Shown: positions 1 to 42,851 of the stretch, one piece after another
How positions within the stretch are numbered: the first letter of the stretch is position 1
Layout: the number at the start of each line of letters is the position of its first letter
DNA from: Lama guanicoe
Lineage: Eukaryota
Assembly: GCA_013239625.1 (NCBI GenBank)
Contig: MU053695.1
Span: 1 to 42,851, forward strand
Direction: 5' to 3'
Length of the DNA: 42,851 nt
Notes under the pieces: generated by a model
Database searches by the model: none
Told to the model about the DNA's origin: nothing
Seen by the model: the letters and a program-made list of their open reading frames with translations, nothing else
Position numbers and translations under genes: made by a program

Positions 1-321
1 GCTGAGAATAATCTGGCTATAATCTGGGAACCAAGAGAAGTGCTAGGAGAGTTGTGCAACGTTGCTCCCCTGTACTGGGCCTAATGGAAGCTCTCTTGCT
101 CCCTGAATCCCAGTGATGGTGGTTCATTGTTGTAGGGATTCCAAGAGAATCTAGTTTGCAAGTAGAAGCTGGGTTCTTATCAAGGCCCCCGACTCCCTTC
201 CCATTCATTCCCAGGCAACGGGGGACATGGTGAATCTCTGAGGAGTGGCATGGATGCTGGGGCCCAGACTACAAAGGGACCTAAACAGAGCCAAAGACTT
301 TGCGTTGAGTTCAAAGCCAGG

Positions 322-327
322 TTTATT
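322..327 (-). terminator. AATAAA polyadenylation signal of DUXC copy A
   Basis: tttatt on + strand ~255 nt past the stop codon, conserved in copy C (41565-41570). Confidence 0.65.
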
Positions 328-581
328 GGATCAAGGAAATGTCAGAGAGAACCCGCAAATCAACCTCTAAGGCAAGAGGACTTGGGCCATCCTCTTGCTG
401 GTTGGCATGCTAGCATCCCTTCCGACATCAGGGAGGATGCCCCTGCTAGTGCCCGTGCGTCCTGAGAGAGCCCGGGGAGCACGGCAGGGCTGAGGGAGGC
501 CACGCAGTGGCGCTGGCAGTCTGGGCGCCTTGCCCTTGCTGCCGAGCCCTAGGAGTGTGGCTGGCTCCTTGTCCTTTGTTC

Positions 582-1458
582 TCAGCCGTGGCTCGGCATC
601 CCAGGGAAAGAGGCCTGAATTGGGCTCGACCAAAGGCTTTGCTGAGGCCCTGGTGAGCCTGGCAACATGTCCAGGAGGGCCTGGAATTCGTCATCACTGA
701 GGGGTTCCTCCAGGGTTGGCCAGAGTCCCTCTTCCGGGGTGCCGTCGCTCAGGAAAGGTTGTGCCTTTTCCAGAAGGCTGGCGTCTGACAAGAGTTCATC
801 TAAGAGGCTCCCTGAGCCTGTGGCGCCTGAGGGCTGGGGCTGCGGGTGGAGCGGAGGAGACGTGAGTTGATCCGATGGGGCCTACTGCTGCCACAGTTGT
901 GTCTCGGCCTGTTCGGGCTGCAGAATTGCCGCGTGGGGGCTGCGCGGCTGAGCCGGATGCTGCCCGGTCTGTGGAGGACCGCTGCGGGGGACAGGCTGAG
1001 GGGGTGCTGCCGCGCCAGGGTGCAGGCTGTGGTGCGGGCAGGGCCCTCCGTGGGCAGAGGGCGTGAGTGCCGCGTGCACAGGGTGCGAGATCCTGGACTC
1101 GGCCCTGCTCTGGTGCCGCTTGGGTCTGTTCCCGGATGTGGAGGGTTCTCAACTCCCTGCCAAGCCGGGGTGGGCTGGAGCACCAGGAGCATCAGTGGCT
1201 TGCCCACTGAGCCACCAGGGGGCGCACAAGGCACATAGAAGCTGGGGACAGAGGAGGGGCTGCCGCGGCAAGGGACCGGAAGCTGTCCAGTGGATCAGTT
1301 GGAGGCAAGTGATGAGCGCCGTGGTGGATGTTGGGCGGGGGCCGTTGGTCCGATGGGACAGTCGGGGCTGGTCTGGCATCGGGGTCTTCTGCCCGGGCCT
1401 TGGCAGGCGCCCCACTGCTCTGCTCCGGGTGCCGAGCTCTCCGGTTCTGAAACCATAT
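582..1458 (-). pseudogene. DUXC: DUXC-like copy A, terminal exon (end of homeodomain 2 plus C-terminal activation domain), disrupted
   Basis: Acceptor ...catcttgcctag|ATA TGG TTT CAG AAC CGG AGA GCT CGG CAC gives IWFQNRRARH. The 3' end encodes SLLDELLSDASLLEKAQPFL...EEPLSDDEFQALLDML, the DUX4/DUXC/Dux C-terminal motif. Lesions: 1-nt deletion at ~1245, net 4-nt deletion at ~1080-1091, in-frame TAG at 882-884. Confidence 0.9.
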
Positions 1459-1517
1459 CTAGGCAAGATGAGAGAAAATCCGGTTCTGAAACCATATCTA
1501 GGGAAGATGAGAGAAAG
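1441..1517. repeat. 39-bp tandem duplication spanning the terminal-exon splice acceptor
   Basis: ccggttctgaaaccatatctagg[c/g]aagatgagagaaa occurs twice with period 39; it is single in copies B and C. Confidence 0.95.
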
Positions 1518-1829
1518 GGAGACAGGTTCATGAGAAGCAAGATCTTCCAAGTCGCCTTGCAACGGCCATGCCAGCACCCCTGGTGTAACAGGCTCTGGGC
1601 AAAAACACTGCCTTCGGCTAGGTTTTGACCCAGGGTCATGTGACCTCTGCCGGTCTCCAGGTCCTTGCAAAATGAGGGGCAAAGTCAGGGCCACACTGGA
1701 AGCCTGGCTTCCATGAGAGATCCCTCGCCGACTGGCTAGAATGTCGGGACCCCTCCCAGGCTGTCTGGCACCTCCTCTGACCCGCCCCCTTCAGGAAATT
1801 GATTCCTTCATGTCAGGCACCTGAGTGAA
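1459..1829 (-). other. Partial last intron of DUXC copy A, truncated at 1829
   Basis: Aligns with 33970-34452 and 42703-42851; similarity to copy B ends abruptly after cacctgagtgaa. Confidence 0.85.
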
Positions 1830-2419
1830 ATCTTATATTGAAACTTAAAATCCCACATTCCTCATCCCATACTCCTCAATGTCCCACTCACAGAACCAAA
1901 TCCTGTATTATTGCTTCGGATTCTGAACTCCGAGACTGGGAAATGCACAATGTCCCGAATGAAATAGGGATAACAGCCAAGCAATGTCTCAGATAGATCA
2001 GAGTATGTCATTTTGGGTGAGATGGAAAGGCTGGAGAGGTGGGACAGCACACGCAATGATGAATGTTAGGCAGATGGTGGGGAAGGGTGGTTCTGGACAC
2101 AGCAGTGGTCTGCTTCCCTGCTGGGCTCCTGACCCTCATTGATGGATCATCTGAACTTTATGAGGTCATCAGTTCCCCTGCTCTGACACCATGGGCTCTT
2201 GGCCAGCCCCCAAGGAGAGAGACTGAAGCATCCACACTCCTCAGCCTGGACACCTGCTCCTACCCATTCCAGGGGAACACAGACATCTCATCCATTGCTG
2301 TCACTTCAGAGCGAGCTGTTCTTGTGAAAACTGCTCCTGTTTGTCAGGAAGAACTCTTAGGTGAGCATGCAAATCCAAGTGGATACCAGTTCCCAAAGGT
2401 GTCTTGGCCCTGAGAGTGC

Positions 2420-3420
2420 AGCCCCGCCCCCTGGCCGAAGGAGCCACTCCCCGTGCACGCAGCCCGGCCCCGCCCCCGTGCCCTCCTCGGCCACGCCCCT
2501 GCCCCGGCCGCCGGCCCGCCCCTTCATCAGGCCGGCAGGCAGGAGGCAGTCGTTCCCAGCGGCCCGGGGCTCTTCTGAGCGCCGCTGTCCCTCCTCAGCC
2601 TGCCAGCGGCGGCGGCTGCACAGGCAGCGGCGCGGTCCCTTTGGCAGTCGCAGCTTGAGCCGAGCGGCGGCGGAGGGGCCTGCCCAGCGCGTTGGCGGCG
2701 CCGGTGGCTTCCGCGTCGGTTTCCATGGAGGCGGCAGCGGCGGTTGCGGTTGCGGCGTCGGCGGCTGCAGCTACGGCAGCGGCGGCAATGACGACGGAAG
2801 GGAACAGGGTCTCCGACATGGTCCGCGGGCAGGCGTGCGACGTGGGGCCGCCCTACAGCAAACTCTGGTACATCGGGGAATGCTCCTGTGTCGTGATGTC
2901 ATGATTTTCCGCACCCCGTGTGCCGGCCGCGCACCCCCGCGCAGCTTCTCACTCGACCTAGGCGTTCACAGCCGCGGCCTTGGCCTAGGACCCTCGACCC
3001 TGATTCCAGCGCAGACCCCGACCCCCGCCAAGCTGCCCAGTTTTCTGCGCGTCCTGAGTCTGGGGCAGGTCCTGGCCGCTCTTGCTGTGGCTTTGCTCCT
3101 GCAGCTTCCAGGTCGGCCCTGGCTCAGCGCGGGGAGTCGGGGAGGGGCTCAGGGCGTGGGGGCCACGGCCCGGTGGGGCCCTTCGTGACCCCCAAGAAGG
3201 GAACTTGAGCCCCCGCCCCAGGGTGCACCCCTCGCGGCCTTCCCTTGACCACCCCGAGTGAAGCCGCCAATTCCTTCAGATGTTCAAAACGGTTGCGTCC
3301 ATGGTCGGGAAATGGGTTGGCAGGGGCGTGTGTGCAGAAAGCCGGAATCATCGTCTCGTTTAGGCCCCTCACCTGTGTTTCCCGCTGACGGCTTAGCTTC
3401 AGGACCTTCCGCGGTGCCAA
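2420..3420. promoter_or_regulatory. CpG island with GC boxes, derived from a MAPK1 promoter/exon 1/intron 1 region
   Basis: Very high GC and CpG density, several ccccgcccc Sp1-type boxes (2421-2520), surrounds the MAPK1-like exon. Confidence 0.75.
2500..2904 (+). pseudogene. MAPK1: Diverged unprocessed MAPK1 (ERK2) exon-1 fragment (5'UTR plus N-terminal coding)
   Basis: 2725-2904 encodes MEAAAAVAVAASAAAATAAAAMTTEGNRVSDMVRGQACDVGPPYSKLWYIGECSCVVMS, against ERK2 [40 protein letters not shown] as recalled. Upstream ccggcccgcc...ggcaggcagg...ggcggctgcac...ggcgcggtccct resembles the MAPK1 5'UTR. Homology stops where ERK2 exon 1 ends and no exon 2 is seen. Confidence 0.85.
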
Positions 3421-4849
3421 TGGTGCTCTCCTGTGTAAGCTTTCTACAAAGCATGAATTGGCAGCAGTGTTGGTGTGGAAAGTTTCAAACGCGGAGTTTC
3501 CAAGTGAATTCGGCTATGGTACTGTTCGCGCTTCTGGAAGGGTAAGTCAACATCCCTGTCTTGATTCCTTCAAGTGTCATTTGGTTTTCTACCTAAGTTG
3601 ACGCTCCCCCCGCCCCCGCCCCTCCTTGAGCCCGACTGAGCTTTCCTACTAGCAGATAGGCATCTAGTTGTCTTAGCGCAATGACTGCGGGCTTTTCCTT
3701 CTAAGGCTTTAGCGCTCAGTGTGTATGCAGCCCAGATGGAGTTCTTGGAGAAGCAAGTGCAGGCTCCCAGTGCTCGCTTGAGATCCCTCAGAATCTTCCC
3801 TGGAATCGGGGTAACGGTGTTGCTATTTAGTAATTTTTTTCAAGTAGATCCAACCACCTTTTGTCTTTTGCGCTTACAGAGACTTGTAGAGCTGTAGGCT
3901 CCCTTACACCTCAGCCTTCATGGGTGTGTGTCTTTTTTTTGAATGGAGGGAGCAAACCATTTCAGATACTTAGCTAGGTATGTTATCTCATGTTACCTGA
4001 AAAGCCACCTGCAGAGAGGGAAAGGCAGAGACAGCTGTCTTTCAGATGAGAAGCTGTTTCATGGTGAAGCTAGTACTTATTGTCGCCCAAATAGTCGGGC
4101 TTGAGATTGCAGCCTGAGATCTTGTTCTGGTTGCTGGAGCCCTTTCCATTGCTCCCTGTTTTCCTTCATTAGTGTTGGGAATAATTTTGGAATTTTAGCC
4201 CCTTTTACCCTTACAAGCAAATTTATTTCAGAAACATATTGAACTTTGAACGGTCAAAATTTGAGAAATGCATTGAGGGAATATTTTTCCATGTGTGTTT
4301 TGTAAGTACGAAGTTAATACAAAATGTGTAAGAAGAAATTCTTGAATATTTCCTTCCAGTCCAGGAGCAAATTTTTGTGAATGAATGAATGGACATGAGA
4401 ACCATTTTAAGTGAAATTATACAGACATTAATTACCACATGTTGTACGAATCCATTTAATTGGAAGTCAGGAATATGCAAATCAGGATTTCATATAAATG
4501 AAATCAATCCCAATGTACAGGTTAGTGACTGTTTGTTTTCTCTCAGTACTGTTTTTGAGTGCTACAACTTTTTTATATCTATATGACATTCAAGCTGTTC
4601 ATATTGCTGAATATGCCATGCATTCATTCTGTATGTAGGGCATGTAAGAGTGTGTCACAAACTATGTATTTATCCCTTCTTTTAATACTAGATATTTGTG
4701 TTAGTACCATTTGCGTTACTATAAATTCACAGTTTGTTTATTTATGCATGCATCTTTTTTGTAATTATCTGATGTCATTCACCATATGTGAAAAATATTT
4801 GCCAGCAGTAATATTGGGTCGATGTGTCTTAAATACACCTTGAGTGCCT

Positions 4850-7520
4850 TTTAAGTATTTCCCTTTTTATTACCTTGGTTTCTTTTGGTTTTTGTGAGTC
4901 TATTGTGTGGTTTTGGTCTGTGGTCACCCTGTTTCTCAAATACATTAACCCATTTCTCTCTCTGTTGTCTTTAAACAGATTATCATATAATCTCAAACAC
5001 ATCCTCAATAGAACAGAAACAAATCTCTATTTTCCTGCTTCCCTTTCCCATCCTTAATGATTTTCATGCCGTGTTTTTCATCTTCATGCTTATTCTCTTG
5101 CAACTTCTTGCCGTTATTGCCTTTCCAATAATGGTTTTCTCATTTCTAGATCATCCTTCCTCATCAGGGTCTAAAATTCTCAATCTTTCTTGCAGGATAT
5201 GTTTATTATTGCAGAATTCTTTCTATGTTTGCTTGTCTGTGAAACCCTTGATCTCTCCTGTTATTCTAAAGGATTGTCTTGTGGCATAGGTTATGCTAGG
5301 TTGCACGTTCTTCTCATTCAGGGATTTGACTCTCTATGAAATCCCTCCTTGGCCTGCAAAGTTTGTATTGAAAAATCTGCTGAATGCCTGATGGAGGTTC
5401 TCTTGTGATTCACTTGTTTTAATTTTGGTGCACTTACAATCATTTCTTTATCATGAAATTGGGTCCTTTTCATGACAGCATGTCTTTTTGTAGGTCTCTT
5501 GGTGTTTATCTTCTTTGGGTCCCACTGTGTTTCCTGTATTGGGAGAGCTGATTCTTTCTTCAGTTTAGGAAATGTTCAGTCTAATTTCTTCAGTCCCCTT
5601 TTCCAAATCCTTTTCTCTTTCTTTTCCATCTGGGACCCCTATATTTCATAGAATGGCATACTTCTTATTATCCCAGGTTTGAAATGCATGGCTTCCATTA
5701 GTTTTCACTTGCTTCTCTATGTCACATTCTGATTGTGTGATTTCCCTTATCCTTTGTTCTGAGACAATTCTTTGTTCCTCTGCATTTTCTAGTCTGATTT
5801 GACCGTTTTTAGCAAGGCAGTTACCTCATCCATTGCATTTCCTGGTAATATTTGGCTCCTCTTTAGAGTTGCTGTTTTCATTTTATAGTATTCTGCATTT
5901 TTATTCATAGCCTTTCTTGTTCCTTCAGTGTTTTTCTCACCTCCTTTTTCAAGTAAGGTTCTTTTGGAGTTTTGGTTCTAATTCATTGCTCATTCTTTAA
6001 GGGGCTTTCTCTTTTAATCAGGGATGGTTCTTCTTCTTTTGCATTTGATTACATCTCTAGGTCTCTCTGGCTTAAAGATCATCAGTTATCTCTTTCAGAG
6101 TTGAAGGGCATGTTTGAAGTGTCAGCTTTTCTATCTATGTCATGCACAGTTCCTAATATTGCCGTTAGGACTGCTTTGGGTATGGATTGATGCTTCTGTG
6201 AGCATTGCCTCTTGTTTCTTTGATTCCCTGCATAATTTTGTGATGGTCACTCACTCTTGTCATTTAGCAGAGCCTCGTTTTGGCTAGGTGTTTATCACAG
6301 CTTTGACTGTGTCAGAGCCTACTCCTTTTTGGCTGGAATTGTGGCTACCAAGCATTCTCTGGGCTGCAGTATGTGATCTGTGGAGTTGGACATTTTCCAA
6401 TACTCTTTCTTGACAGTGCCCTTACCCTTGCTTTCGCCACGGGAAGGTCAGCACCCTACTCTGGTGACCCACAGGTTCTCTGGCCACACAACCACCAGTG
6501 AAAACAGTCTAATAAAATCAGGCCCTAAGGCCTGGTGCAATCACCCTGCAGTCCCTCATCTGGATCATCAGGGAAGTACCAGGTCAGCATCGTCCCCATT
6601 TGTTGCATTTTCCTGTTAAGCAAGCCTGATGGAAAGTCTTCCCCTTACCCTGCTGTGCACAAGCACCCTGCTCCTTGTTCTCTCCTCTGAGATGTGAGGG
6701 ACCACAAAGACAACAGCAGAGCAAATCCACACCCTCTGTCTGGGACTCCAAACCTTATCTCAGTCCTGCTGATGAAGTTGCAGATTATCTGGCTCTGGAT
6801 TCTACTTTTCCCCATCTTCCCCCAGAACACTTGAAGCAGAATGATGACAGATGTTTGAGCCCTCCTTCTCTATTCAGAAAATGTCACATTGAGCCCGGGA
6901 CCAGCACAGACAGTAGCTATGGCCATAGGATACCTAGATATTCACCATCAGGCCCACGAGGAGTGTTGGTTTTTGATCTGCGGTTACCAGCAGTTCTGTT
7001 CTGTACAGAGCACCATCTACAGCCAATAGCACACTCCAACCAGTTAGACTGCTTCTGTGCCATCAGCCTTAGCCTTCTCCCTCAGCTTTAGCAGCCATTC
7101 CTAGCTCACCATTGCCAGCTCGAGTCAAGTTCTCGGGATGGATTTCTGGCCTATATTGTGCTGGTCCCTTTCACTTCTCACAGCTAAGCATCTGCTGTGC
7201 ACTCCTCTCAGCCTCAAGGGATCCCCTTCGATCCCTGTTATCTTGTCCATTACATGTTTCCCAGTAAAAGAGCATCTCCCATTTTGCTGTCCCCGACCCC
7301 CACCAAATATCAGGGCCTGCACTGTTTGATGTTCTACTTGTCTATTTTCTCCTACCAGATTTTGTCAGGACTCTTTCTGTCTTTTGAAATAAGAGATGTT
7401 CCACCAATGATCAGCAGGTATCTTGAGCAAATGTGTGGGTAAGTGGATACATATCTTGTTGTATACATGGGACTGGGTGAGCTAGAAGTCCACTTACACT
7501 CCAACATCTGGGCACTGATA
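4850..7520 (-). mobile_element. LINE-1 5' portion (5'UTR, ORF1 remnant), 3'-truncated
   Basis: T-rich antisense L1 ORF1 signature (tccttggcctgcaaagtttgtattgaaaaatctgctgaatgcctgatggaggttc, ~5345-5400) and L1 5'-end-like sequence at 7330-7515. Confidence 0.7.
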
Positions 7521-8449
7521 AATCGACACTATTTTTTTAAGATATCAATCACAGAATTGTGCTTCTTGTTTAGACGTCTGTTTAGGGCATCCATAGTGGG
7601 AGAGAGGGTCAGAAGACTCCAGGTCTGCCATTGTGTTGATATCATACTTGCAGCCTTTGAAATGCTTTATAGATTAAATTAGATATTATGAGGTTTGTAT
7701 CCAAATAAAATCATTTCTTAAACCATCTAAATCTAATTACAAACCACTGTTGCCAATGTTGGGTACCAGCTTGTCAAGTCTATAGGTACAAAAACAGTGA
7801 ATTGATAAATCAGCAGCTGACTACTGTGATGAAGAAAACAGTTTACCCAGGTTCAATTGGTGCATTGGACTCACCAATTAGAACCATGAAATAACACCTG
7901 GGCTTCCATAGTGCATGTGGTGCATATTTGTCTCATTGAGACCTCCTGAGCTCTGGTTGGTGAATCAATGGGCAACAATTTGCTTGAGAAATACCCAAGG
8001 AAACCCAAAGAACACATTTCTATTTAGACTTATTGCAAAAAACATCTAGATCCATGATAACTAGGAGAACAATGCTGCCTATTTTGGATGATACTGAGAA
8101 GCAGGAGCTCTTATATCAATGGTGGATTGTTTCAATGGTACTTACGCATTTGAAAAATTAATTTAAGCCTACAAATTCTACCCCTAGATATCCTGCACCC
8201 AGGATTCTACTTAAGGGGAAAGAAGTTCCATATAAATGTGTCCATAAATGCTTCTGATAGCTTTTACAGTTCACTTTTGGACTGATGTGTAATAGTTACC
8301 CATATTGTCTTGATACGTGTATGCATATACAATTTGCATATCCATGTTGATGTTAAATAACACTCATATATGTAGTAAATGATTTTATTTTTACTGTGGA
8401 AAGTGGATGGGAATGGATAAGTTGGGGAGTTTGATATTTGAAAATATTA

Positions 8450-8655
8450 ACCACTGTATATAAAAAAAGATTAAAAACAATCTTCTTCTCTATAGCATAG
8501 GGAACTATATTCAAAATCTTCTGATAAACTTTATTGAAAAAAATTATGAAACAATTATGTATTTATGTATTCATGACTAGGACTTTGTGCTGTACACCAG
8601 AAATTGACACATTGTAACTGACTACACTTTAAAAAATAAACAAATAAATAACATT
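8450..8655 (+). mobile_element. Short L1 3' end with A-rich tail (cetartiodactyl/camelid type)
   Basis: tatagcatagggaactatattcaa...tgtgctgtacaccagaaattgacacattgtaactgactacacttt followed by aaaaaataaacaaataaata. Confidence 0.8.
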
Positions 8656-9802
8656 AAAATTGTTATTCTGGTGATTCCTTTTATTCACCCTACCCTAAAT
8701 ATCATTTTATATGCAAGAAAATCAGCTCCCTACTTTCTCACCACCGCTTAGGATGCTTGCCTCTAATCACTTCATAATTGGAAATTAAAGTGATCCCAAT
8801 TTTCCCAAGATGGGAAGTGGGAAGAGAATGAGGAGGAGGAGGAGAATTATTTAGTGGTGATCAACTATTCATTAACACTACTTGGAACCAAATAAATAAA
8901 GCCTGGGCTTTATTTTTGCTGATATATCTTGATTTTTAAAAATTGTACATTGATAAATTCTTCAAATAATTCCTTAAGAATGAATGGATTCAGAATTGCC
9001 TGTGTAAAATATTTTTATTGAAGAGGGTTAACAAAATTAACATGGTTTCTATCCCTTCATTAAAAAGAAAGAATAATTTCAAAATGTTATCTCTAGAGCA
9101 AATTATGTATTTCACTTTCTACTATCAATAAAAAATAATGTTCTCCAGGGATTGGAACACTCCTATGAAGCAGGCTGTATTATACCTTTGAGACAGAAGG
9201 CACCCTGAAATTTCTAACTGAAACTCTGATAGCTAAAACTCCAGATGTCTTCCCAGAATTGTCAACAAGTGGGCAATCCACCATGGATTTTCTATTTCTG
9301 TACCATGCCTCTCTGACCTGAAATTATTGTTGTCATATATTAGCAATACATAAATTATAACAAAATCTGGTACTTCCAAATGCTAGTTGGTAAATTTTCT
9401 CCCCTTCTTTGTGTCTCTGTTTCCTCATCTGTAAAGTGGACAGACTGCAGTCCCTGCTATGGGCACTGTATGTACATGGGAGCATCTTGCTTTTATTCAT
9501 ATCCTCAGTTTACTCCCCTGTTTCCTGCACTACACCCCTGCCTCCGGAAGGACTTAGTACCCCTCATCCCTGAATCCTTCTAGGCTTCTGAGATACTAAT
9601 TGTCTTTTGACATTTTGGCAAGCCCTCTCTAAGCACTTGACATGCAGATTTCCCAGCCCTCATAACCCCTCACTCAGCCTCTTCCATCTTCCAAAATTAT
9701 GTTGACTTACTTGCCTATACTTTTTATTGGTTTAGTGGGTTTCATTAAAAAGTATGCATTTTTGAGTCTGCTATGTTTAACCAGAATTCTCCAACAGAAA
9801 AT

Positions 9803-9848
9803 GAAGGGAGGAAGGAAGGAAGGAAGGAAGGAAGGAAAGAAGGAAGGT
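9803..9848 (+). repeat. (GGAA)n microsatellite
   Basis: gaagggaggaaggaaggaaggaaggaaggaaagaaggaagg. Confidence 0.9.
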
Positions 9849-10624
9849 GTTAAAGATCAAAACCAAACTGTCAGTTTTCAAAGACCTGCTAACTTTTTAA
9901 CTTAATCAAGTACCTTTGTTGGAAAGAGGATTCTACTGTGATATTCTCTTCTCTTTATTGTTGGTATGTGAACTGGAAGGTGAGTGGAACCTGTAACCTG
10001 AATCAAGGAGATAAAATTAAATAAAGGCAAGCAGTCCGTATCACCAAAATTTTAAGAATTAAATTATTTCTAAAGTAAGGCAAAATATTTATATGGGTTA
10101 GATAGAAGCACAGGAAAACTAAAATCCTCACAGTGCAGAAAATATACTTTAAGAAATTTAAATGTATACCTTCAGTTTCTACAAACAAAATATATGTATA
10201 GTTCATATACTTTGTTTCAATTTGGCTAAATTAAAATGTATGTCATATTATGCATTCTACATTAGAAGGAGAATATTGATCATAAACATATTTGAAGGAT
10301 ACTTTTAATAAGTAGGTATATGATTAGAATCTTCAAAAGCTTTTTGGATTACTTGTCTTATAAATGTAGAAGGGATTTATGACCGCAAGTATGTAAGAAT
10401 ATGTTAAAATTAATTAGAGGGTTCAGTAAGGTTTTGTGAACACTAATAATCTAAAAATATGCTCAGATAATTTAGAATACATTTTTAAATTAGACTTCAA
10501 TATCATATAAAATTTAGCTGTCTATATGAAATAAAAATTTTCTTTCCTAAGAAATAATAAAAAATATATTTTGAAACGGAAAGAATTGGATGCTTATAAA
10601 TGTTAATGGGGAGTAAAGTATTAT

Positions 10625-10980
10625 ATAATATACAGCCCTTTCAGATTGGCTTCAACCACTTAGTCATATGCATTTAAGAGTCCTCCATGTCTTTTCATGT
10701 CTTCATAACCCATTTCTTTTTACCACTGTATAATATTCCATTGTCTCAATATTGTACCACAGTTTATTTATCCATTCACCTATGAAGGACATCTTGGTTG
10801 CATCCAAGATTTGGCAATTATGAATAAAGTTGCTATATATGTACCAAAGTTTTTGTGGATGTAAGTTTTTATTTCATTTGAGTAAACATCAATGTGCATG
10901 ATTGCAGGGTTGCATGGGAAACCACCAGACTGTTTTCCGAAGTGGCTGTACCATTTTGCATTCCCTTCAGTGTATTCTTT
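10625..10980 (-). mobile_element. Old L1 (L1MB/MC-like) 3' fragment, antisense
   Basis: cagccctttcagattggctt...ccacagtttatttatccattcacctatgaaggacatcttggttgc...ccattttgcattccc. Confidence 0.75.
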
Positions 10981-10984
10981 TGTT

Positions 10985-31992: not shown

Positions 31993-32024
<32 letters not shown>

Positions 32025-32836: not shown

Positions 32837-33363
32837 TGTTACCGAGTCCAAACTCGTTCTGCTTGCTGCATGATAGGCCAGTAAGTCAGGAGACCAGGTT
32901 TTGAGGCAAGGAATAGTGACTTTATTCATAAAGCCAGGTGAATAAAGAAGACGGTGGGCTAATGTCCTGGAGAACAATCTACCTCAAGTCAAAATTCAGG
33001 CCCATTTTATATTAGAAAGGGGCAGGCGGTGTGCTTGTTTGTTGCAGAATTCTTGGTGTAGGAGTTCCTTGTTGTTAGAATCCTTTGTTCTTGCAGGTCT
33101 CCACCTGGGTCAGATCCCAGTAAACCTCCAACAAAACAAATGTTATTTTCCATTCTGCAACTTCTCTTTATATGAATGGAAAAGTGTTAATATCCTTAAA
33201 GGTCAGAGCCTTGAGAACAGGCTCTCCTGTATATTACAGGCTCTACACAACATTGTATTACAAAACGCACAGAATCAACAAGACTAAGCCTAGAAAACAG
33301 GGCACAGGGTTAAAGTCAAAGGAACATATCTACCATGGAGTCAGATTTGTTCTTTTCTATTAA
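32837..33363. mobile_element. Solo ERV LTR
   Basis: tgttaccgagtccaaactcgttctgc...ttgaggcaaggaatagtgactttattc...tttgttcttttctatt; resembles Laurasiatherian ERV1 LTR consensus sequences as recalled. Confidence 0.6.
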
Positions 33364-33809
33364 AAGAGCAGAAACTTCTTGAGGATGATGTTTATTTGAA
33401 TTATAATTTTCTAATTCTTTTGAACTTTTGCTCACTTCCATTTCATTTGCTTCTGTTGAATTGCTCATGGCTTCTGTACACTTCAGTATAATTTACTGTG
33501 ATCCCAGAAATGTCCAGCCTTTGTCTGTGTTTGTGATGCTTCCATTTCCCATTTGTTGCTCTGATTACTTTTAATTTTCTATTTATTTTCTGTACTTTGC
33601 CAACTATTCTCTATTCCTGTAGGCTTTCAATGTATTTCATAAACTCTTCTTTATCTTTCTTGTTCTTTTGTTTTGTAGAAAAATGAATGCTTTAAGTCAT
33701 GTTTCCCATAACACAATAAACAACAACTTTCACCATTCTTGAAAAGCTATTATGCTATCTAGAGTGTTCCATTATCTGAAATTTTATTTTTCCCCTTTAT
33801 CCTTTTAAA

Positions 33810-33969
33810 TTGGAGGCAATTCACAAACACTGTTGTGGATGATGGGCGGAGGATTTTGGTCCGATGGGACAGTCGGGGCTGGGCTGGCATCGGGGTCTTC
33901 TGCCCGGGACTTGGGAGTCGCCCCTCTGCTCTACTCCGGGTGCCGAGCTCTCCGGTTCTGAAACAATAT
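33810..33969 (-). pseudogene. DUXC: DUXC copy B terminal exon, 5' 160 nt only
   Basis: cctag|ATA TTG TTT CAG AAC CGG AGA GCT CGG CAC CCG GAG TAG gives ILFQNRRARHPE*, with W to L and a stop at 33931-33933. Homology to copies A and C ends at ~33810. Confidence 0.88.
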
Positions 33970-34026
33970 CTAGGCAAGATGAGAGAAAGGGAGACAGGTA
34001 CATCAGAAGCAAGACATTCCACATTG

Positions 34027-34330
34027 CCTTGCAACCCCCATGCCAGCACCCCTGTTCTGACAGACTCCGGGCAAAAACACTGCCTTCGGCTAGGCCTTGA
34101 CCCGGGGTGATGTGACCTTTGCCGGTCCCAGGGCCTTGTAAAATTAGGGGCAAAGTCAGGGCCACACTGGAAGCCTGGACCTTGCAACCCCATGCCAGCA
34201 CCACTGTTCTGACAGACTCCGGGCAAAAACACTGCCTTCGGCTAGGCCTTGACCCGGGGTGATGTGACCTTTGCCGGTCCCAGGGCCTTGTAAAATTAGG
34301 GGCAAACTCAGGGCCACACTGGAAGCCTGG
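34027..34330. repeat. ~152-bp tandem duplication inside the DUXC copy B last intron
   Basis: ccttgcaacccc...cacactggaagcctgg at 34027-34178 and 34180-34330; single in copy A. Confidence 0.95.
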
Positions 34331-34529
34331 CTTCCATGAGAGATCCCTCGCCAACTGGCTAGAATGTCGGGACCCCTCCCAGGCTGTCCGGCACCTCCTC
34401 TGCCCCGTCCCCTTCAGGAAATGGATGCCTTCAGGTCAGGCACCTGAGTGAATGCCTATGGGGAAACTTACCCACCCCATCCCCCTCGCCAACACACAAT
34501 GACCCACCCACACATCCAAAACCATCTCA

Positions 34530-34814
<285 letters not shown>

Positions 34815-34859
34815 TCACATTCAGTGCACACAAAATCTGCCGTATGTAGGAAATGGCAC

Positions 34860-35190
34860 ATCAGATAGATAGGTAGGTAGATAGAGAGATAGATAGATAA
34901 ATAGATGATAGGTACAGAGAGAGAGACAGACAGATTGAGAGATACATAGGTATAGATTTACATAGATAGATGACAGATCGATAGATAGAATATAAATAGA
35001 TACATAGATCATCTTTACACATATATTTTTATATACATATATCTATCTCGATGTCTAAAGTGTATTATCATGTGTATGTATAAGTATACACAGGCACAAT
35101 GCATTCCCCCACCCACACAGACACATCCACACAGACACACCCACACAGACACACACAAACACACACATACACACTCACACACACTCACGG
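34860..35190. repeat. (GATA)n/(TA)n/(CA)n compound microsatellite in a DUXC intron
   Basis: gatagataggtaggtagatagagagatagatagata... and cacacagacacacccacacagacacacac. Confidence 0.9.
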
Positions 35191-35636
35191 TTTCCATTTT
35201 TAATTTTAATAATTCACTTTTAAAAATTTATTTATTGCTTGACTGTTTGTTTGCTTGTTTCTCTAGTTTACTGTTTGGTTGTTTTCCCAGCATGTTTTCT
35301 GGAGTGTTCTGAAGCCCTGATGGGCCAATGTTGGAACAAAGCTTGCTAAAGGACCAAAGTAGCCCGAGAAAAACATTTGTGCATTGATAAAGAAGGGAAT
35401 TCTGCACTTCAGACAGTTTCAGGACCAGATGATTTAAAGCCTTCCTGGCTATGCAAGACCCCACCTTCCACACAGGGTCACGATGCTACTGGTCAAAGCA
35501 CCAGCAGGGCAAGGGCCAGGTAGTCTTGTTTCCTCTCCTAAGGCTTCTCTGCTGACTCCTTGTCACCCACGTTCAGAGATGAATCTGTCTCCAGGAACCC
35601 TTCTGGGAAAATGCCTTTGGAAAGCCAGGGACTCAC

Positions 35637-35751
35637 CTTGAGTCAGAGCCTGAGGCTCGAGCACATGATGCGATTGCCTGTCTGGTAACACGTTCTCCGA
35701 TGGCGGACGGTTCTGCCTTAGGCTTCTTCTTCATTGGTTTTGGAACCAAAC
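35637..35751 (-). pseudogene. DUXC: DUXC copy B exon encoding the end of HD1 and the linker
   Basis: ttctacttag|GTT TGG TTC CAA AAC CAA TGA AGA AGA... gives VWFQNQ*RRSLRQNRPPSENVLPDRQSHHVLEPQALTQ, then G|gtgagt. 115 nt, phase 0 to 1, TGA at 35731-35733. Confidence 0.9.
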
Positions 35752-36719
35752 CTAAGTAGAAGGAGAAAAACCCTTGTCACTCAAATGCTTAGGGATAGAT
35801 CTCAAGAGCTATCACAGTGATTAACAACAGAACAAACAGACAAGACAAGAATGGACAAACTGTAGAGTCCATGTGCCCCCAGGGGAAGGATTTAGCCCCC
35901 AAAGGGACTGAACTTGCCACAGATTATGGCTTTCACCTCAGAAGAACTGCCCAGGATTCCAGAAAACACAATCCACATGGAAGAAAATCAGCATTTCCCA
36001 TGCCATCCTCTCTCTAGGATCCAAAGACTAAAACCCTTGAGGCAGGAGACAATGTTTCCTTTCCCAAAGTCAGTCTGAAGGAGCTTGCTAATATTCTCTC
36101 TCTCTCTCCTCCTCTCACTTTCCCTCATTTACTCCCCCGACCCACTCTCTCTAATCATCTGTCTCAATCTATCTCCGTTTATTTCTCCCACTGTTTAACT
36201 CTGTCTCTCTTGACATTTTCCATTTCTGTCAAACCTGCCACGGTCCCTGTTGGCCTGGTATTCTCACTCTCCGATTCTGTCCGTCTACCTGTTTCTGCCT
36301 GTTGCTCTTTTCCTTACTCTCAGTCCCTGTCTCTGACCCTGTGTCCATTTCTCACTCTTGTTTCTCTCACTTGCTCCCTCTGAGTCTTTGTGCCTCCTTT
36401 TTGGCCTTGCTCAGTGCCCAAGGAATGTTCCTCTGTTCTCCATTGTAGCCCCATGTACAGCACCCTTTCCTAACACACCACGCATAGGTGAGTGCTCTTG
36501 TCCAAAATTCACTGAACACGGGTGACCCCCTGAAAACCCCATGCTGCCTGGAAATGACTCCTTGCCAGGGAGCTCTTAGGAGCACAAGGTCTTGCCACTT
36601 CCAGTTCTGGAGGCTCTTATGTTCCCAATCCCCACCTTTGAAATCTGTGTCACTGTCTTCAACAGTGAAGCCACATGTTGCCTTCCACGCTCCCCAAGAA
36701 ACAGGTGCAGAGTTAGGTT

Positions 36720-36800
36720 TGGATGGAGTGGAGTGGAGTGGAGTGGAGTGGCGTGGAGAAGGGTAGGGTGCAGCAGAGTGAGGTCGAGTGAGGTCAGGTT
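36720..36800. repeat. (GGAGT)n pentamer repeat
   Basis: tggagtggagtggagtggagtggagtgg decaying to gagtgaggtc. Confidence 0.85.
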
Positions 36801-37577
36801 AGGCTTTGTGGAGGGCCGGGTGGCGGGGTTTGGGTTTGGAGATGGGAAGGTGTGGCCATCAGGGTAGATTTGGGTGTCGGTGAGGTTGTGGGCTGTGTGT
36901 TTGCAATTTTAGGCATCTCTGATGGGGCAGGGTGGGCAGTTATTTGAACCTGCCAGCCAGATCAGTAATGGAAGCCTGCGCGTGTTAGTGCCCCTTGAAA
37001 TGTCGCAGGCACTGTGCTCCTGCTCCTGCGGTTCTCCCCTTTCAGGACTCCTCTCCCAGCTGACCAGACAGGACGCCTTGAGCAGCGGTAGTGCCTCGGG
37101 GGTGAGCCACAAAGGACCGAACTCCCTGGCACGAGCAGCCTCACGCACCCTCGTTCCCTGGGCTTGGATTCCTGCCCACCCGTTGGCATAGGACCCAGGG
37201 CCACTCAGCTCCCCCTGGCCCTGTTCTCCCAAGGGACAGCCATTCCTTCTCGGGAGACCTCAAGCACCCAGGAGCACCAAGGGGAGGAGACGGGTCCTGT
37301 CCCTAGCGTGCCCTCCACCACCAAGTGTCTGTAGCCAATTGCATATTGGGCTCGGAAGCCACGTACAAACCCTGCAGCACAGACGCTCATTAGAGGACCC
37401 CCATTTTATTGATGCTGGCTGGCTAACCTTCGGGTCCCTCCCAATGCACGAGAGACAAATCCAAGTTAAGCTTCTGCAGCCAGCTTCCCGACCAGGAAGT
37501 TGGAACCTACACGGCTCGGGCAGGGAGCGTAGGGACATGGACCCCGAGAGAGGAAGAATCCAGAGACTGAGATTTAC

Positions 37578-37732
37578 CTGAATTCTGCTTTCAGCAATGC
37601 CCTGGTCACGGGCTATGCTTTCATGGGCCTTGATGCCAGGGTAGGGGTTCTTTTGAAAGAGGGCTTGCAGAGCGTCCTTTTGACTGAGCTTCAGAACCAG
37701 CCTCCTTCTCCGCTGTCCACCTGTGCGTGGGC
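37578..37732 (-). pseudogene. DUXC: DUXC copy B exon encoding most of homeodomain 1
   Basis: tttggcag|GC CCA... gives PRTGGQRRRRLVLKLSQKDALQALFQKNPYPGIKAHESIARDQGIAESRIQ|gtaaat, with the DUX HD1 signature RRRRLV...NPYPGI. Confidence 0.92.
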
Positions 37733-37794
37733 CTGCCAAAGGCAACAGGGGGAAACTTCTGAGAGGGGATCCGTTGAGCCGCACCAACAGTTGT

Positions 37795-37819
37795 GCCGGG
37801 TGGTGATGGATGGGGCCAT
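37795..37819 (-). pseudogene. Putative short first coding exon of DUXC copy B (MAPSITTR)
   Basis: ATG at 37819 just upstream of the HD1 acceptor. A 25-nt phase-1 exon would fit, but no GT donor follows it. Confidence 0.35.
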
Positions 37820-39833
37820 ACCAGCCTGCATTTTGTGTCCGGGAGTCCGGGGGGAATAGACCCAAGTGCACAGATGAACGTCCATTTCTATCTAACGGAA
37901 GCACACGCAAAGCCCTTCTGAAGGGGAGACCCTGGGCCTTACATCTAGACCTTGTAGCAAAGATGAGATGGTTCATGCTCTTGGTTTCTACCCCCAACTC
38001 AGCGGCAGCCCACAGAGCTAGGAAGCAACCAGCTGGGAAGGCCTAGGACAACAGGCTCACATTCCAAATGGGTGGAAGATGTTCCCACCCAGGGGACGCG
38101 GCGGCCGGCTGCCAGCCGTGGAATGTCTGGATGGACCCTGGCAGGATGGACCTCGAAATTTAGGCCAGCTACAAGAGCCCGCCTTGCGGCTCCTCACACA
38201 TCCATGGCACAGCTGCTTGAACTACCTGAAAATGAAGCCAAGCACGGCCGCATGTGGGTAGTTTGTGTCGGATACCCACCTTGAGGCCCTCGTGCCCCGA
38301 CCCTGATTCTGACGGTGCCCGCGCTGGGACACCACAGAGGAGGAGCACCCCATCCTGGACGTCAACGTGTCATGTGGACTGGCTGCGTACATGCAATTCT
38401 TTCTCTGTGGAAAGCTTGGTGTGATGGAGCCCTGTCCTAGTGGACACTTGTTTTTGTGATGCAGAGGAATAGGACTGTGCTTGTTTCACACGTTCTGTGG
38501 AAAGCCCGACGTGGTATCGGGCACGTCCCGGGCTTCGGGACGACTTGGATTTCCTGAAGTGTATTCAAACTCTAGAACATCAGCCCTCCTGAGAAAGGAA
38601 TTCCCTGCTAGCCGCTGTCAGATGCCAAACTAGGGTGTCAAGGTGTCTGCCTGGAAGGACGCAAGGCATGGCTTGCGCACCGCAAGCGACGCTTCCTTCA
38701 CAAGCACCCTTTCTGCTTGCCTGCTCCAGTGAGATTTCTTCGGACAGAAGTCATGGAGCACACGGTAGCCTGGCCTTGGGGGCTTCCCCTTCAGAAAGCC
38801 CCACCCCCACAAGTGCCCCCAGCCGCCCCTGCCCCCAGGCCCCACTCCCTACTTTGGAGTGGAGTGGGAGGCAATTCAAGGGCTTCTGGGATCAGTGCCT
38901 CCCGAGCCCTAGTGTGGAGTTTGGTGGCAAGGGAACCTATGCTCCTGCCGTGCTTCTTGGGAATTCTGCGTGTGGACTATTTCCTGGGACAGCAGAGAAA
39001 CGGACCCTTTCCCATGGAACTCAAGCCGAGAGAGAGCTGCTAAACCACCATGAGAAAGAACCAGCGACACCAACTCAAATGTCCAAACGTGGTCCACTAG
39101 AAATGCGCTTCCTGCAGTCGGAAGCCTTGGACAACGGATGCAGCTTTCTGTGCAGCTGCACGTCAGGACTTGTGAGAGAGGAGCTGTGGGTGGGCCACAG
39201 GGCTACCGCTCCCATGTCCATTTCAACGGGGCCAAAGAGATTAATGAAAGGAAAAACAAAACTACCTCAGCCACTCTCAATCATTTGGCCCAATGGCTTC
39301 CTTAAACACAGCCCAGCCAAAGCCTTCCCTGCAGTCTCAGGGGGCCATTTCTCCCCTCGTCCACACCCCTGAGAGGGCAGGAAAGCATTTCAGATGAGCC
39401 AGCAGGAGAGCCCAGGTGCTGATGTCTACTTACCGTAGGACGTGCGTGAGTCATCCATGGCCGGAGAGACACCCGTCCGGCACAGAGGCTGCTGGCCAAA
39501 TGCTGAGTTCCCAAGAGCACGGGCCTTATCAAGGGATCGGGCACGCCCCGCCCCTATTTATGGAAATCGCTGCCTCGGGGTCCCAGCCCCCCTTCCACCT
39601 TGAGAACGTTGAAGTGTTCCCATTTCCCATGTTTTCTCGTTAGGGGACTTGGACTAAAAGGCCAATCCAGAGGCCAGCAAGGACCTTTATTTGGAAGCCT
39701 GGCATCCTCCGTTCCCCGGGCTGAATGGACTCCAGGGCTCTCTGGTTTTCACACGTTTTCCCGTTCCACACAGTGTTTGCTCTCCCTGGCGTTCCCCGGC
39801 CCTGGCTTCGTGGTGACAAGGCTTGGCCCCACT

Positions 39834-40685
39834 NNNNNNNNNNNNNNNNNNNNNNNNNNNNNNNNNNNNNNNNNNNNNNNNNNNNNNNNNNNNNNNNNNN
39901 NNNNNNNNNNNNNNNNNNNNNNNNNNNNNNNNNNNNNNNNNNNNNNNNNNNNNNNNNNNNNNNNNNNNNNNNNNNNNNNNNNNNNNNNNNNNNNNNNNNN
40001 NNNNNNNNNNNNNNNNNNNNNNNNNNNNNNNNNNNNNNNNNNNNNNNNNNNNNNNNNNNNNNNNNNNNNNNNNNNNNNNNNNNNNNNNNNNNNNNNNNNN
40101 NNNNNNNNNNNNNNNNNNNNNNNNNNNNNNNNNNNNNNNNNNNNNNNNNNNNNNNNNNNNNNNNNNNNNNNNNNNNNNNNNNNNNNNNNNNNNNNNNNNN
40201 NNNNNNNNNNNNNNNNNNNNNNNNNNNNNNNNNNNNNNNNNNNNNNNNNNNNNNNNNNNNNNNNNNNNNNNNNNNNNNNNNNNNNNNNNNNNNNNNNNNN
40301 NNNNNNNNNNNNNNNNNNNNNNNNNNNNNNNNNNNNNNNNNNNNNNNNNNNNNNNNNNNNNNNNNNNNNNNNNNNNNNNNNNNNNNNNNNNNNNNNNNNN
40401 NNNNNNNNNNNNNNNNNNNNNNNNNNNNNNNNNNNNNNNNNNNNNNNNNNNNNNNNNNNNNNNNNNNNNNNNNNNNNNNNNNNNNNNNNNNNNNNNNNNN
40501 NNNNNNNNNNNNNNNNNNNNNNNNNNNNNNNNNNNNNNNNNNNNNNNNNNNNNNNNNNNNNNNNNNNNNNNNNNNNNNNNNNNNNNNNNNNNNNNNNNNN
40601 NNNNNNNNNNNNNNNNNNNNNNNNNNNNNNNNNNNNNNNNNNNNNNNNNNNNNNNNNNNNNNNNNNNNNNNNNNNNNNNNNNNNN
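39834..40685. other. Assembly gap (852 N)
   Basis: Run of n. Confidence 1.
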
Positions 40686-41045
40686 GGTGGTTGTGGGGGA
40701 GGGGAGCGGGAAGGGGGAGGGGAGGGGGAGTCGAGGACAAGCAGGAGGAGGAGGAGGAAGAGAAGGAGAAGGGGAATTCCAAAGCTGCCTTGAGAATGGT
40801 GGCAGAGCTGTGCTAGGAAGGAATATTTGGCTGCAACATACAAACCCATCTGACATTTGAGCTGAGCCTAGGCCCTAGATCCTTGAAACATGGAAACCCC
40901 AAACACATAATGAGCCGTCTTAAGTGTACTCTTTTGCCACCCTTGTTCATAAGACTCAGCCATGTGCACTGAGATCGAGACTGCGAGCTTCTTCAGCAAC
41001 AGTTGGGGATCAGTCTAATTCAACCAGCACTTGGTTCAAACGATG

Positions 41046-41200
41046 CTTGTGTGTGTGGGTGTGTGTGTGCTGTAAGTGTTTTTGGCCAAGATGGAATAAG
41101 AAAGGGAGAGAGAGAGAGAGAGAGAACCAGAGAGAGGCAGAAGGAGACACGCAATTGAGGGAGGTAGGGATGAAGGGCGTGAGCGAGAGAGAGAGATTGA
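41046..41200. repeat. (GT)n and (GA)n microsatellites downstream of DUXC copy C
   Basis: gtgtgtgtgggtgtgtgtgtg; gagagagagagagagagaga. Confidence 0.85.
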
Positions 41201-41564
41201 TTGCCTGCCTGATATCCCCAGCACCTTGGTTAATTGGAGCCCTGCTGAGAATAATCTGGCTATAATCTGGGAAGAAGAGAAGTGCTAGGAGTTTTGAGTA
41301 ACGGTGCTCCCCTCTACTGGCCCTAATGGAAGCTCTCTTGCTTCCAGAATCCCAGTGACGGTGGTTCATTGTTGTAGGAATTCCAAGAGAATCTAGTTTG
41401 CAAGTAGAAGCTGGATTCTTATCAAGGGCCCCCGACCCTCTTCCCATTCATTCCCAGGCAACGGAGAACATGGTGAATCTCTGAGGAGTGGCATGGATGC
41501 TGGGGCCCAGACTACAAAGGGACCAAAACAGAGCCAAAGACGTTGCGTTGAGTTCAAAGCCAGG

Positions 41565-41570
41565 TTTATT
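41565..41570 (-). terminator. AATAAA polyadenylation signal of DUXC copy C
   Basis: Same position relative to the stop codon as in copy A. Confidence 0.65.
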
Positions 41571-41824
41571 GGATCAAGGAAATGTCAGAGAGAACCCGCA
41601 AGTCGACCTCTAAGGCAAGAGGACTTGGGCCATCCTCTTGCTGGTTGGCATGCTAGCATCCCTTCCGACATCAGGGAGGATGCCCCTGCTAGTGCCCGTG
41701 CGTCCTGAGAGCGCCCGGGGAGCACGCCAGGGCTGAGGGAGGCCACGCAGTGGCCCCAGCAGTCTGGGCGCCTTGCCCTTGCTGCCGAGCCCTAGGAGTG
41801 TGGCTGGCTCCTCGTCCTTTGTTC

Positions 41825-42702
41825 TCAGCCGTGGCTCGGCATCCCAGGGAAAGAGGCCTGAATTGGGCTCGACCAAAGGCATTCCTGAGGCCCTGGTGAG
41901 CCTGGCAGCATGTCCAGGAGGGCCTGGAATTCGTCATCACTGAGGGGTTCTTCCACGGTTGGCCAGAGTCCCTCTTCCGGGGTGCCGTCGCTCAGGAAAG
42001 GTTGTGCCTTTTCCAGAAGGCTGGCGTCTGACAAGAGTTCATCTAAGAGGCTCCCTGAGCCTGTGGCGCCTGAGGGCTGGGGCTGCGGGTGGAGCGGAGG
42101 AGACGTGAGTTGATCCGATGGGGCCTGCTGTTGCCACAGGTGTGTCTCGGCCTGTTCGGGCTGCAGAATTGCCGCGTGGGGGCTGCGCGGCTGAGCCGGA
42201 TGCTGCCCGGTCTGTGGAGGACCGCTGCGGGGGACAGGCTGAGGGGGTGCTGCCGCGCCAGGGTGCAGGCTGTGGTGCGGGCAGGGCCCTCCGTGGGCAG
42301 AGGGCGTGAGTGCCGCGTGCACGGGTGCGAGACCCCCTCCTGGACTCGGCCCTGCTGTGGTGCCGCTTGGGTCTGTTCCCGGATGTGAGTTCTCACTCCC
42401 CTCCAAGCCGGGGTGGGCTGGAGCACCAGGAGCATCAGTGGCTGGCCCACCCAGCCACCAGGGGGCGCACAAGGCACAAAGAATCTGGGGGACAGAGGAG
42501 GGGCTGCCGCGGCAAGGGACAGGAAGCTGTCCAGTGGGTCAGTTGGAGGCAAGTGATGAGCGCCATGGTGGATGTTGGGCGGGGGCCTTTGGTCCGATGG
42601 GACAGTCGGGGCTGGTCTGGCATCGGGGTCTTCTGCCCGGGCCTTGGCAGGCGCCCCACTGCTCTGCTCCGGGTGCCGAGCTCTCCGGTTCTGAAACCAT
42701 AT
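41825..42702 (-). pseudogene. DUXC: DUXC-like copy C terminal exon with one frameshifted region
   Basis: cctag|IWFQNRRARHPEQSS...; a net 4-nt deletion at ~42387-42403 shifts the frame. The downstream frame (ORF 41825-42472) ends with SLLDELLSDASLLEKAQPFL...LSDDEFQALLDML. Confidence 0.88.
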
Positions 42703-42851
42703 CTAGGCAAGATGAGAGAAAGGGAGACAGGTTCATGAGAAGCAAGATCTTCCAAGTCGCCTTGCAACCGCCATGCCAGCACCCCTGGTCTAACAGGCTC
42801 CGGGCAAAAACACTGCCTTCGGCTAGGTTTTGACCCAGGGTCATGTGACCT

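Follow-up and report, generated by a model that had tools for sequence, protein, structure and literature searches.

The stretch of guanaco DNA that we analyzed (Lama guanicoe, GCA_013239625.1, contig MU053695.1, positions 1-42851 of the forward strand; hereafter the window) is most likely a decaying DUXC side-cluster around a 32 kb duplicated block, and not a working gene array (Table 1). Three DUXC-type pieces, A, B and C, were found in it. All of them lie on the minus strand and all are best matched by dromedary DUXC, which bears out the three same-strand DUXC-type units of the original prediction. None of the three is an intact unit: B has two stops, A has frameshifts and a stop, and C is frameshifted. 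As assembled, no piece could give rise to a protein that combines the two homeodomains with the activation domain, and the locus as it stands is dead. A functional array is expected to have intact reading frames and homogeneous neighbours. We found neither, as A, B and C are all interrupted (error is possible for the indels) and identity in the shared exon part was 88.7% for B-C and 87.4% for A-B, with 98.1% for A-C. No satellite array was found within the window.

Table 1. Features of the window, in order of position.
Feature	Coordinates	Strand	Description
DUXC copy A	1-1829	minus	Last part of intron 4; exon 5 (1458-582) with the C-terminal activation domain, poly(A) signal 327
Fading edge of A	1830-1903	minus	70-80% similar to B intron 4 (34455-34523)
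Intervening block	1904-33809		About 32 kb, mosaic in composition (segment GC 0.34-0.66); mainly repeats and unnamed sequence
Decayed MAPK1 (ERK2) front end	2400-3300	plus	CpG island, GC 0.71, CpG o/e 0.82; exon-1 coding about 2770-2900
L1 ORF1 remnant	5321-5575	minus	Pfam Transposase_22, E 6e-06
LTR-bounded element, read as decayed provirus	16640-23105		Direct repeats about 16640-17130 and 22637-23105, K2P 0.12
Second GC-rich, CpG-bearing stretch	23106-23340		Abrupt start at LTR end; GC 0.67, CpG o/e 0.58
DUXC copy B	33810-39458	minus	Exons 39458-39434, 37732-37578, 35751-35637, 34771-34617, 33969-33810 (last cut off)
B promoter region	39459-39833	minus	TATA-like CATAAAT at 39562; promoter function inferred
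Assembly gap	39834-40685		852 N; B-C link depends on scaffolding
DUXC copy C	40686-42851	minus	Exon 5 (42702-41825), preceded by the last part of intron 4, which the window end truncates; poly(A) signal 41570; spacer

Identity and decay of the DUXC pieces

The best matches of the pieces were the dromedary proteins XP_064352192-4. By eye these agree with a near-identical sequence that the PMC13558733 supplement lists as DUXC_dromedary_chr17, and dromedary DUXA in the same supplement was clearly unlike the pieces. Judged by sequence similarity, their closest relative is DUXC and not DUXA. Both A and C carry the conserved C-terminal domain which, according to PMC3004920, is common to DUX4 and Dux and absent in DUXA and DUXB. 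The C-terminal 108 aa of C were 94% identical to XP_064352194 and 38-54% identical to ruminant and whale proteins.

Copy B had been predicted to hold 5' exons only, with a break at about 33810. The break is sharp, but B contains exons 1-4 together with 160 nt of exon 5. These exons fit dromedary DUXC in order and phase, as expected of a five-exon gene with two intron-split homeodomains, and exon 2 and exon 4 each gave a Pfam Homeodomain match (E 1.7e-06 and 4.2e-08, respectively). Spliced B was identical to intact DUXC at 169 of 203 residues (83% aa), with 2 stops. One stop lies in helix 3 of homeodomain 1 and the other at codon 13 of exon 5; further, the W of WFQN in homeodomain 2 is replaced by L, and the exon-4 acceptor AG reads TG. 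Exon 5 of B and C differed by 1 synonymous change and by 19 changes in codons with changed residues (a crude count), a skew greater than plain neutral decay would be expected to give, which counts against the side-cluster reading. A DUX4 binding motif had no match near the DUXC promoter or A.

In A, the acceptor is duplicated over 39 bp (1440-1516), and there are 3 small indels (net -5 nt) and 1 in-frame stop, while C carries a net -4 nt frameshift near 42395. The frameshifts of A and C have none in common. Some of their indels fall within homopolymers or next to them, and sequencing error may account for these. Each of A and B has its own small tandem duplication, of 39 bp in A and of 152 bp in an intron of B (34027-34330), 97-98% identical and close to both junctions.

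Relationships between the pieces and the two junctions

A and C were identical in 1549 of 1601 columns (96.8%). The homology of about 530 bp predicted between A and B was confirmed by self-BLAST (E 1e-108 to 1e-109), with corrected extent and identity: the segments span approximately 570 aligned columns and are 86% identical overall, thus not near-identical, and A-C identity there is 98%. Over the final 166 aa, 13 residues set A and C together apart from all 4 dromedary copies, and only 3 and 2 residues are private to A and C, respectively. B, the more diverged copy, has kept the dromedary-like residue at positions where A and C deviate. The single homogeneous tandem array cut by one insertion, as the prediction was titled, was therefore unsupported: A and B differ by 7-13% and A and C by 2% in the shared segment, which suggests that the two flanks differ in DUXC subfamily or in age. 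DUXC identity, decay and likeness to D4Z4-associated duplicons, all foreseen as well, were upheld.

Since A and C are 97% alike and both are only 87-89% identical to B, sequence comparison indicates that B and A did not arise recently by the splitting of a single unit. We think it quite improbable that a single insertion, by template switching or circle integration, split one DUXC unit and duplicated about 570 bp, leaving B and A as halves that diverged later. The order of 5' half, shared segment, block, shared segment and 3' half on one strand is what such an event would leave, A-B identity is highest (98%) in the middle of the shared segments, and circular intermediates have been reported in human duplications (PMC7450558). 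However, with A-B at 86% and A-C at 98% in the same interval, a later replacement of A would be required anyway.

Copy A had been described as a 3' end only, broken at 1829. Its 3' content was as described and high identity does end near 1829, but homology fades on to about 1903. The score for the first 80 nt of homology to B intron 4 was reached by 0 of 2000 shuffles, and A-B identity was 49/69 at the edge compared with 397/434 in the interior (Fisher p 1e-5, borders set after seeing the data). Beyond the break of B there was no similarity to A (shuffle p 0.12-0.43). Identity also faded at this break (44/57, p 0.004), partly from changes on the A/C side and with a small protein-level excess, so that symmetric fading at both junctions was dropped for B and retained only at the A edge. 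Homeology present by chance and exploited at the junction could also explain the 75-bp edge, which would then not be an older DUXC remnant.

We consider it unlikely that the arrangement is an assembly artefact, in which the assembler fused collapsed DUXC repeats with an unrelated contig on one side or on both, or linked B and C wrongly across the gap, or did both of these. The window ends and the gap all lie in DUXC repeat sequence, the near-perfect tandem duplications stand close to both junctions, and indels occur beside homopolymers, all of which would fit such an error. Against this, both junctions lie within one gap-free contig (1-39833), and the edge of A is fading and not abrupt, a pattern that an assembler join would not normally produce. 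Public sequencing runs also speak against it, as words specific to B and words of the block co-occur in runs of several studies. Of 71 words sampled from 33300-34026, 65-83% were present in 19 of the 24 runs listed (6 organism labels, 9 studies; this is presence and not adjacency), and none of the 24 exceeded 83%. The words of this interval are 69% from the block, 4% from the junction and 27% from B, and 5 of 187 B words are common to A or C. The runs at 75% or above (n = 10) therefore probably contain both block and B-specific sequence. One small run, X6, had 78% of the words, while its sister runs of similar size, X20 and X21, had 0; X6 was therefore dropped as a sign of high copy number.

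The terminal-exon acceptors of B (33970) and C (42703) are 8733 bp apart with 852 N within, exactly as predicted. This spacing, a single interval that includes the gap, is compatible with the 8-10.5 kb range of head-to-tail units. It is possible, though we hold it doubtful, that the window is a single repeat unit from a tandem higher-order array with a period of about 41.2 kb (an A/C-type 3' piece, spacer, B and block), with A and C at the same position in adjacent units and a block preceding C too. The two ends of the window share an overlap of 1.6 kb (96.8%), as a collapsed amplicon would show, and A and C pair against B and against dromedary DUXC. In orangutan, higher-order DUX units consist of an intact and a broken copy (PMC13558733, section 7); multi-copy pseudogene blocks of alpaca include chromosome 17 (PMC13751797, section 14), and dromedary has a DUXC array on chromosome 17 (PMC13558733). 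On the other hand, an interrupted array would give the same end overlap, the window stops about 180 bp short of C reaching the break of A, and the frameshifts of A and C all differ; the 78% in X6 and 0 in its sister runs are unlike high-copy sequence, if the libraries are alike. As a weak further argument, none of 102 stretches of this genome that were compared resembled 2300-4600, 1-12000 or 23100-33800. If true, such an amplified repeat would clearly exemplify how a ZGA-gene macrosatellite can widen through capture of foreign DNA.

Content of the intervening block

The block had been predicted to be a patchwork of unrelated gene fragments, which our results bear out only in part. We identified MAPK1 exon 1, the only donor gene named in the block besides DUXC, and 4 other exon-like stretches did not receive a name. 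In the MAPK1 piece 15 of 21 residues were identical to ERK2 at a modest E-value (0.002), with the end of exon 1 placed where we take the boundary to be. The sequence after it is non-coding, and no further ERK2 coding sequence followed in any plus frame. The CpG island upstream and the lack of coding continuation fit a genomic, and not a processed, copy of MAPK1.

From the LTR layout, we take the LTR-bounded element to be an ERV. Its target-site duplication is absent (0 of 4 bases match at the expected site), its ORFs gave no Pfam match, and flanking GC is 0.34-0.35 on the left and 0.51 on the right. The GC steps and the missing target-site duplication point to further junctions in the block; much of it could nevertheless be one locus. 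The fragmented gene pieces can be likened to the mosaic segmental duplications of primates, reportedly treated by Bailey and Eichler in 2006.

Searches with 306 of the 310 ORFs of at least 45 aa yielded one Pfam match at E<=0.01, the L1 ORF1 remnant. For 14051-14347 (minus) none of 27 candidates reached E 0.001 (proteins >2000 aa left out), and the best hits were E 0.59 in PDB and 0.84 in Atlas. One frame of 4230-4517 (plus), read through stops, gave 2 matches among 1.84 billion representatives, to trout SEA repeats and fly GYR repeats, both rejected as repeat-inflated; the best E for its minus-strand ORF was 0.26. There was no PDB match for 12427-12702 (plus), with an Atlas hit at 0.78 to HEAT-repeat clusters as a lead only, and the best E for 32567-32983 (minus) was 0.12. 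One plus frame of six over 3601-16599 had no PDB match at E 0.05. A chimeric DUXC-block protein found no support, with 0 tblastn matches inside the block from 88 DUX-family proteins. Rfam over 31 kb of the window and a camelid SINE motif both gave 0 matches, as did the right-junction motif in JGI metagenomes, which are uninformative for a mammal.

The MAPK1 CpG island is still CpG-rich and lies about 1 kb upstream of A exon 5. It is very improbable, in our opinion, that an amplified 41.2-kb macrosatellite keeps DUXC split, with the island driving opposite-strand transcripts of the activation-domain exon and with homeodomain-only proteins from less decayed B-type copies dampening DUXC at genome activation. 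In the present copy there is no in-frame start before the activation domain and a stop interrupts homeodomain 1 of B; a function, if there is one, would have to reside in other copies or in RNA.

Comparison with known arrays and proposed history

Of the DUXC units of dromedary, three lie on chr17 and a further one on chr33 (for DUXC arrays of Laurasiatheria see Budillon et al. 2026, PMC13558733, and Leidenroth and Hewitt 2010, PMC3004920). The window resembles Laurasiatheria arrays in the five exons, the two intron-split homeoboxes and the conserved C-terminal domain, and probably in the head-to-tail order; its one interval of 8733 bp, gap included, is compatible with the reported 8.1-10.5 kb. 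Mixed intact and defective copies have been reported in dolphin and megabat. In contrast, the window has no intact unit, and its partial units are separated by 32 kb of DNA that includes the captured front end of a gene. Further, the 3 intact one-contig dromedary copies match at 438-441 of 443 residues, whereas guanaco neighbours B and C reach only 89%.

Human pseudo-D4Z4 on acrocentric chromosomes (PMC13558733, sections 9 and 16) likewise consists of partial, non-contiguous, heterogeneous units with interrupted ORFs that escape concerted evolution, although the gene there is the DUX4 retrogene and here intron-containing DUXC. We would give an even chance to the window being an analogous, non-functional camelid DUXC side-cluster within segmental duplications. 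The DUX array on Asian elephant chr14 is also interrupted by a large foreign block, a 10-kb L1MB4 (PMC13558733, section 7). That insert is one transposon and both sub-arrays are coding, whereas here the insert appears composite, the break interrupts the gene itself and comes with a duplicated segment, and no visible unit is unbroken. In alpaca, chr11, 17 and 36 bear repetitive, pseudogene-rich blocks (PMC13751797) that similarly hold gene fragments of unrelated loci in repeat-rich camelid DNA, but the pieces named there are from NEK10, ATF5, FMN2, uS3m, ACTB and ABHD17A; DUX and MAPK1 do not occur in the main text and one supplement of that paper.

Camelid DUXC, like human DUX4, would have left behind partial copies that are intermingled with duplicated pieces of genes. 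Such copies escape surveys in which complete genes alone are kept, and PMC13558733 discarded partial copies in sloth and human. The pieces can confound DUXC copy counts, mapping of embryo RNA-seq and MAPK1 promoter assays.

For the side-cluster we propose the following history. An old rearrangement would have joined the DUXC unit B, truncated within exon 5, to a pre-assembled multi-locus block drawn from the MAPK1 5' end, AT-rich DNA and a second CpG-rich piece, with a second DUXC remnant, beginning in intron 4, at the opposite end. B then decayed, as its two stops and lost acceptor document. Recombination or gene conversion with a younger, array-type DUXC may subsequently have replaced almost the entire left piece, which yielded an A that is 97% identical to C and left only the 75-bp older edge at 1830-1903. 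A and C later gained separate frameshifts, which the present sequence displays. Partial or interrupted DUX copies near arrays (PMC13558733) and duplicated pseudogene-rich blocks of alpaca (PMC13751797) serve as precedents.

Identity and anatomy of the DUXC pieces

The exon layout, the homeodomains and the C-terminal domain, criteria set out in the accessible part of PMC3004920, identify the gene in the three broken pieces A, B and C as DUXC. We used the C-terminal 108 residues of C for a protein search, in which 23 of 273 candidates were hits. Identity was 94% with Camelus dromedarius proteins, against 38-54% with proteins of ruminants and whales, so the window comes from a camelid. The best dromedary matches were 443-aa proteins, three of them on one contig (48.75 Mb) and the fourth on another (20.37 Mb). 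This placement agrees with Budillon et al. (PMC13558733), whose accessible text gives an array of three DUXC units for chr17 and a single copy for chr33, and in the accessible part of their supplement a near-identical sequence carries the label DUXC. The dromedary gene model XP_031326989.1 continued past the DUXC C-terminus and took in another homeodomain-1 exon; a model that crosses into the following unit of a tandem array would have this form.

Features of the window and their coordinates
Feature	Position	Strand	Content
A	1-1829	minus	end of intron 4 and exon 5
B	33810-39458	minus	exons 1-4 and first 160 nt of exon 5; break at 33810
C	40686-42851 (window end)	minus	end of intron 4 and exon 5
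LTR-bounded element	16640-23105		LTR-like repeats, K2P 0.12 between them
Second CpG-bearing, first-exon-like stretch	23106-23340		begins at LTR end

Spliced B matched intact DUXC at 169 of 203 residues, in a splice in which two acceptors each had three additional bases. There were two stops in B, one in homeodomain 1 and one at codon 13 of exon 5, and its exon-4 acceptor was TG. Three indels and one stop were detected in A and a net loss of 4 nt in C, with no lesion in common. Each copy of the segment shared by A and B carried one near-perfect tandem duplication: 39 bp at 1440-1516 in A, by which the exon-5 acceptor was doubled, and 152 bp at 34027-34330 in B. The predicted spacing of 8733 bp between the acceptors of B and C, gap included, was borne out (33970 and 42703, with 852 N in between).

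Divergence of the pieces and edges of the block

A and C matched in 1549 of 1601 aligned columns; that they stand in a tandem higher-order unit of 41.2 kb is a possibility that we doubt. In the exon part common to all three pieces, identity was 98.1% for A and C, 88.7% for B and C, and 87.4% for A and B. Over codons 1-53 of exon 5, residues matching the dromedary numbered 49 in A, 49 in C and 42 in B. Therefore B is either older than the other copies or further decayed. Over the final 166 residues, A and C had 13 differences in common against all four dromedary copies, and private differences numbered 3 in A and 2 in C. Nearly all differences between B and C within codons 1-53 of exon 5 (33811-33969 and 42544-42702) fell in codons with changed residues; a crude count gave 1 synonymous and 19 others.

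Since A and C diverge from B, the intervening block of approximately 32 kb has a different type of DUXC at each end, and we regard a single clean insertion into one DUXC unit as very improbable. The overlap of A and B, predicted at 530 bp, is real; at approximately 570 columns and 86% identity it is both longer and more divergent, and it extends to 1903 in A and to 34523 in B. Identity in A fell to 70-80% beyond 1829, where the first 80 nt had a similarity score above all 2000 shuffles. The drop was significant at the edge of A (p = 1e-5, borders chosen afterwards). We gave little weight to the drop at the edge of B (p = 0.004), because changes on the A/C side partly cause it.

Anatomy, lesions and two divergence classes are the observed part of our account. 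An old rearrangement may have fused a DUXC unit with a duplicated block of composite make-up, next to which B would have decayed. Exchange with younger DUXC copies would later have renewed the left piece as far as 1829, and A and C would afterwards have decayed independently. We give these steps, taken jointly, an even chance.

Content of the block

The block had been described as a patchwork of gene fragments. Its mosaic nature was supported, but a gene fragment was demonstrated for one gene only, MAPK1. The ORF at 2659-2901 matched the ERK2 N-terminus with 15 identical residues of 21 (best E 0.0019), and nearly all of the 60 matches listed were ERK1/2. It lies within a CpG island (GC 0.71, CpG o/e 0.82), and translations of all three plus frames contained no further ERK2 sequence after it. 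Taking the MAPK1 exon 1 boundary at its presumed position, we interpret this region as the MAPK1 promoter together with exon 1, copied in unprocessed form. ERK2 is a highly conserved protein, so six changes in 21 residues point to long decay. The island (2400-3300) retains its CpG o/e of 0.82 despite the decayed coding stretch, and lies approximately 1 kb upstream of the exon-5 acceptors of A (1459-1498), on the opposite strand.

A Pfam scan of 306 of the 310 ORFs of at least 45 aa gave a single match with E no higher than 0.01, which is an L1 ORF1 remnant. Homology searches gave no name to four exon-like stretches; one of these is a 99-codon open frame at 14051-14347 (minus, the strand of B) with good acceptor and donor, for which no homologue was found. 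At 2-2.5e-9 substitutions per site per year, the LTR pair would be approximately 25-30 million years old if both repeats came from one insertion. They may belong to different insertions, because no target-site duplication was found at the flanks of the element and the GC content jumps from about 0.35 on its left to 0.51 on its right. These two features and the CpG stretch at the LTR end support a mosaic block, and the element may lie where sequence from two donor loci meets. An inverted pair (29719-29955 and 30554-30793; approximately 240 bp, 78% identity) presumably represents the ends of an old DNA transposon.

Occurrence in other animals and comparison with known clusters

Both junctions, at 1829-1903 and 33810, lie inside one gap-free contig, and we consider misassembly unlikely. 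Between 65 and 83% of 71 sampled words from 33300-34026 were present in 19 of the 24 runs listed (6 organism labels, 9 studies). By position, 69% of the possible words fall in the block, 4% on the junction and 27% in B, and 5 of 187 B words also occur in A or C. Because of this composition and the few B words in A or C, the 10 runs with at least 75% of the words probably contain B-type sequence as well as block, provided that sampling was even. The word shares indicate presence in other animals, not adjacency of block and B. High copy number is argued against, as no look-alike of 2300-4600, 1-12000 or 23100-33800 was found among the other windows noted (102 in this genome), and one small run held 78% of the words while two sister runs held none.

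Because the reading frames are broken and the neighbouring units heterogeneous, A, B and C are not a functional DUXC array. No description of a camelid DUXC-MAPK1 arrangement was found in the literature searched, which included few subscription papers. The window looks like a real, dead DUX side-cluster tangled with segmental duplications, and as such it would be an ordinary example, so far undescribed, of a familiar type of locus. As far as the accessible parts of the sources describe them, it resembles human pseudo-D4Z4 structures and the elephant DUX array split by L1 (PMC13558733), as well as the alpaca blocks rich in pseudogenes on chr11, 17 and 36 (PMC13751797).
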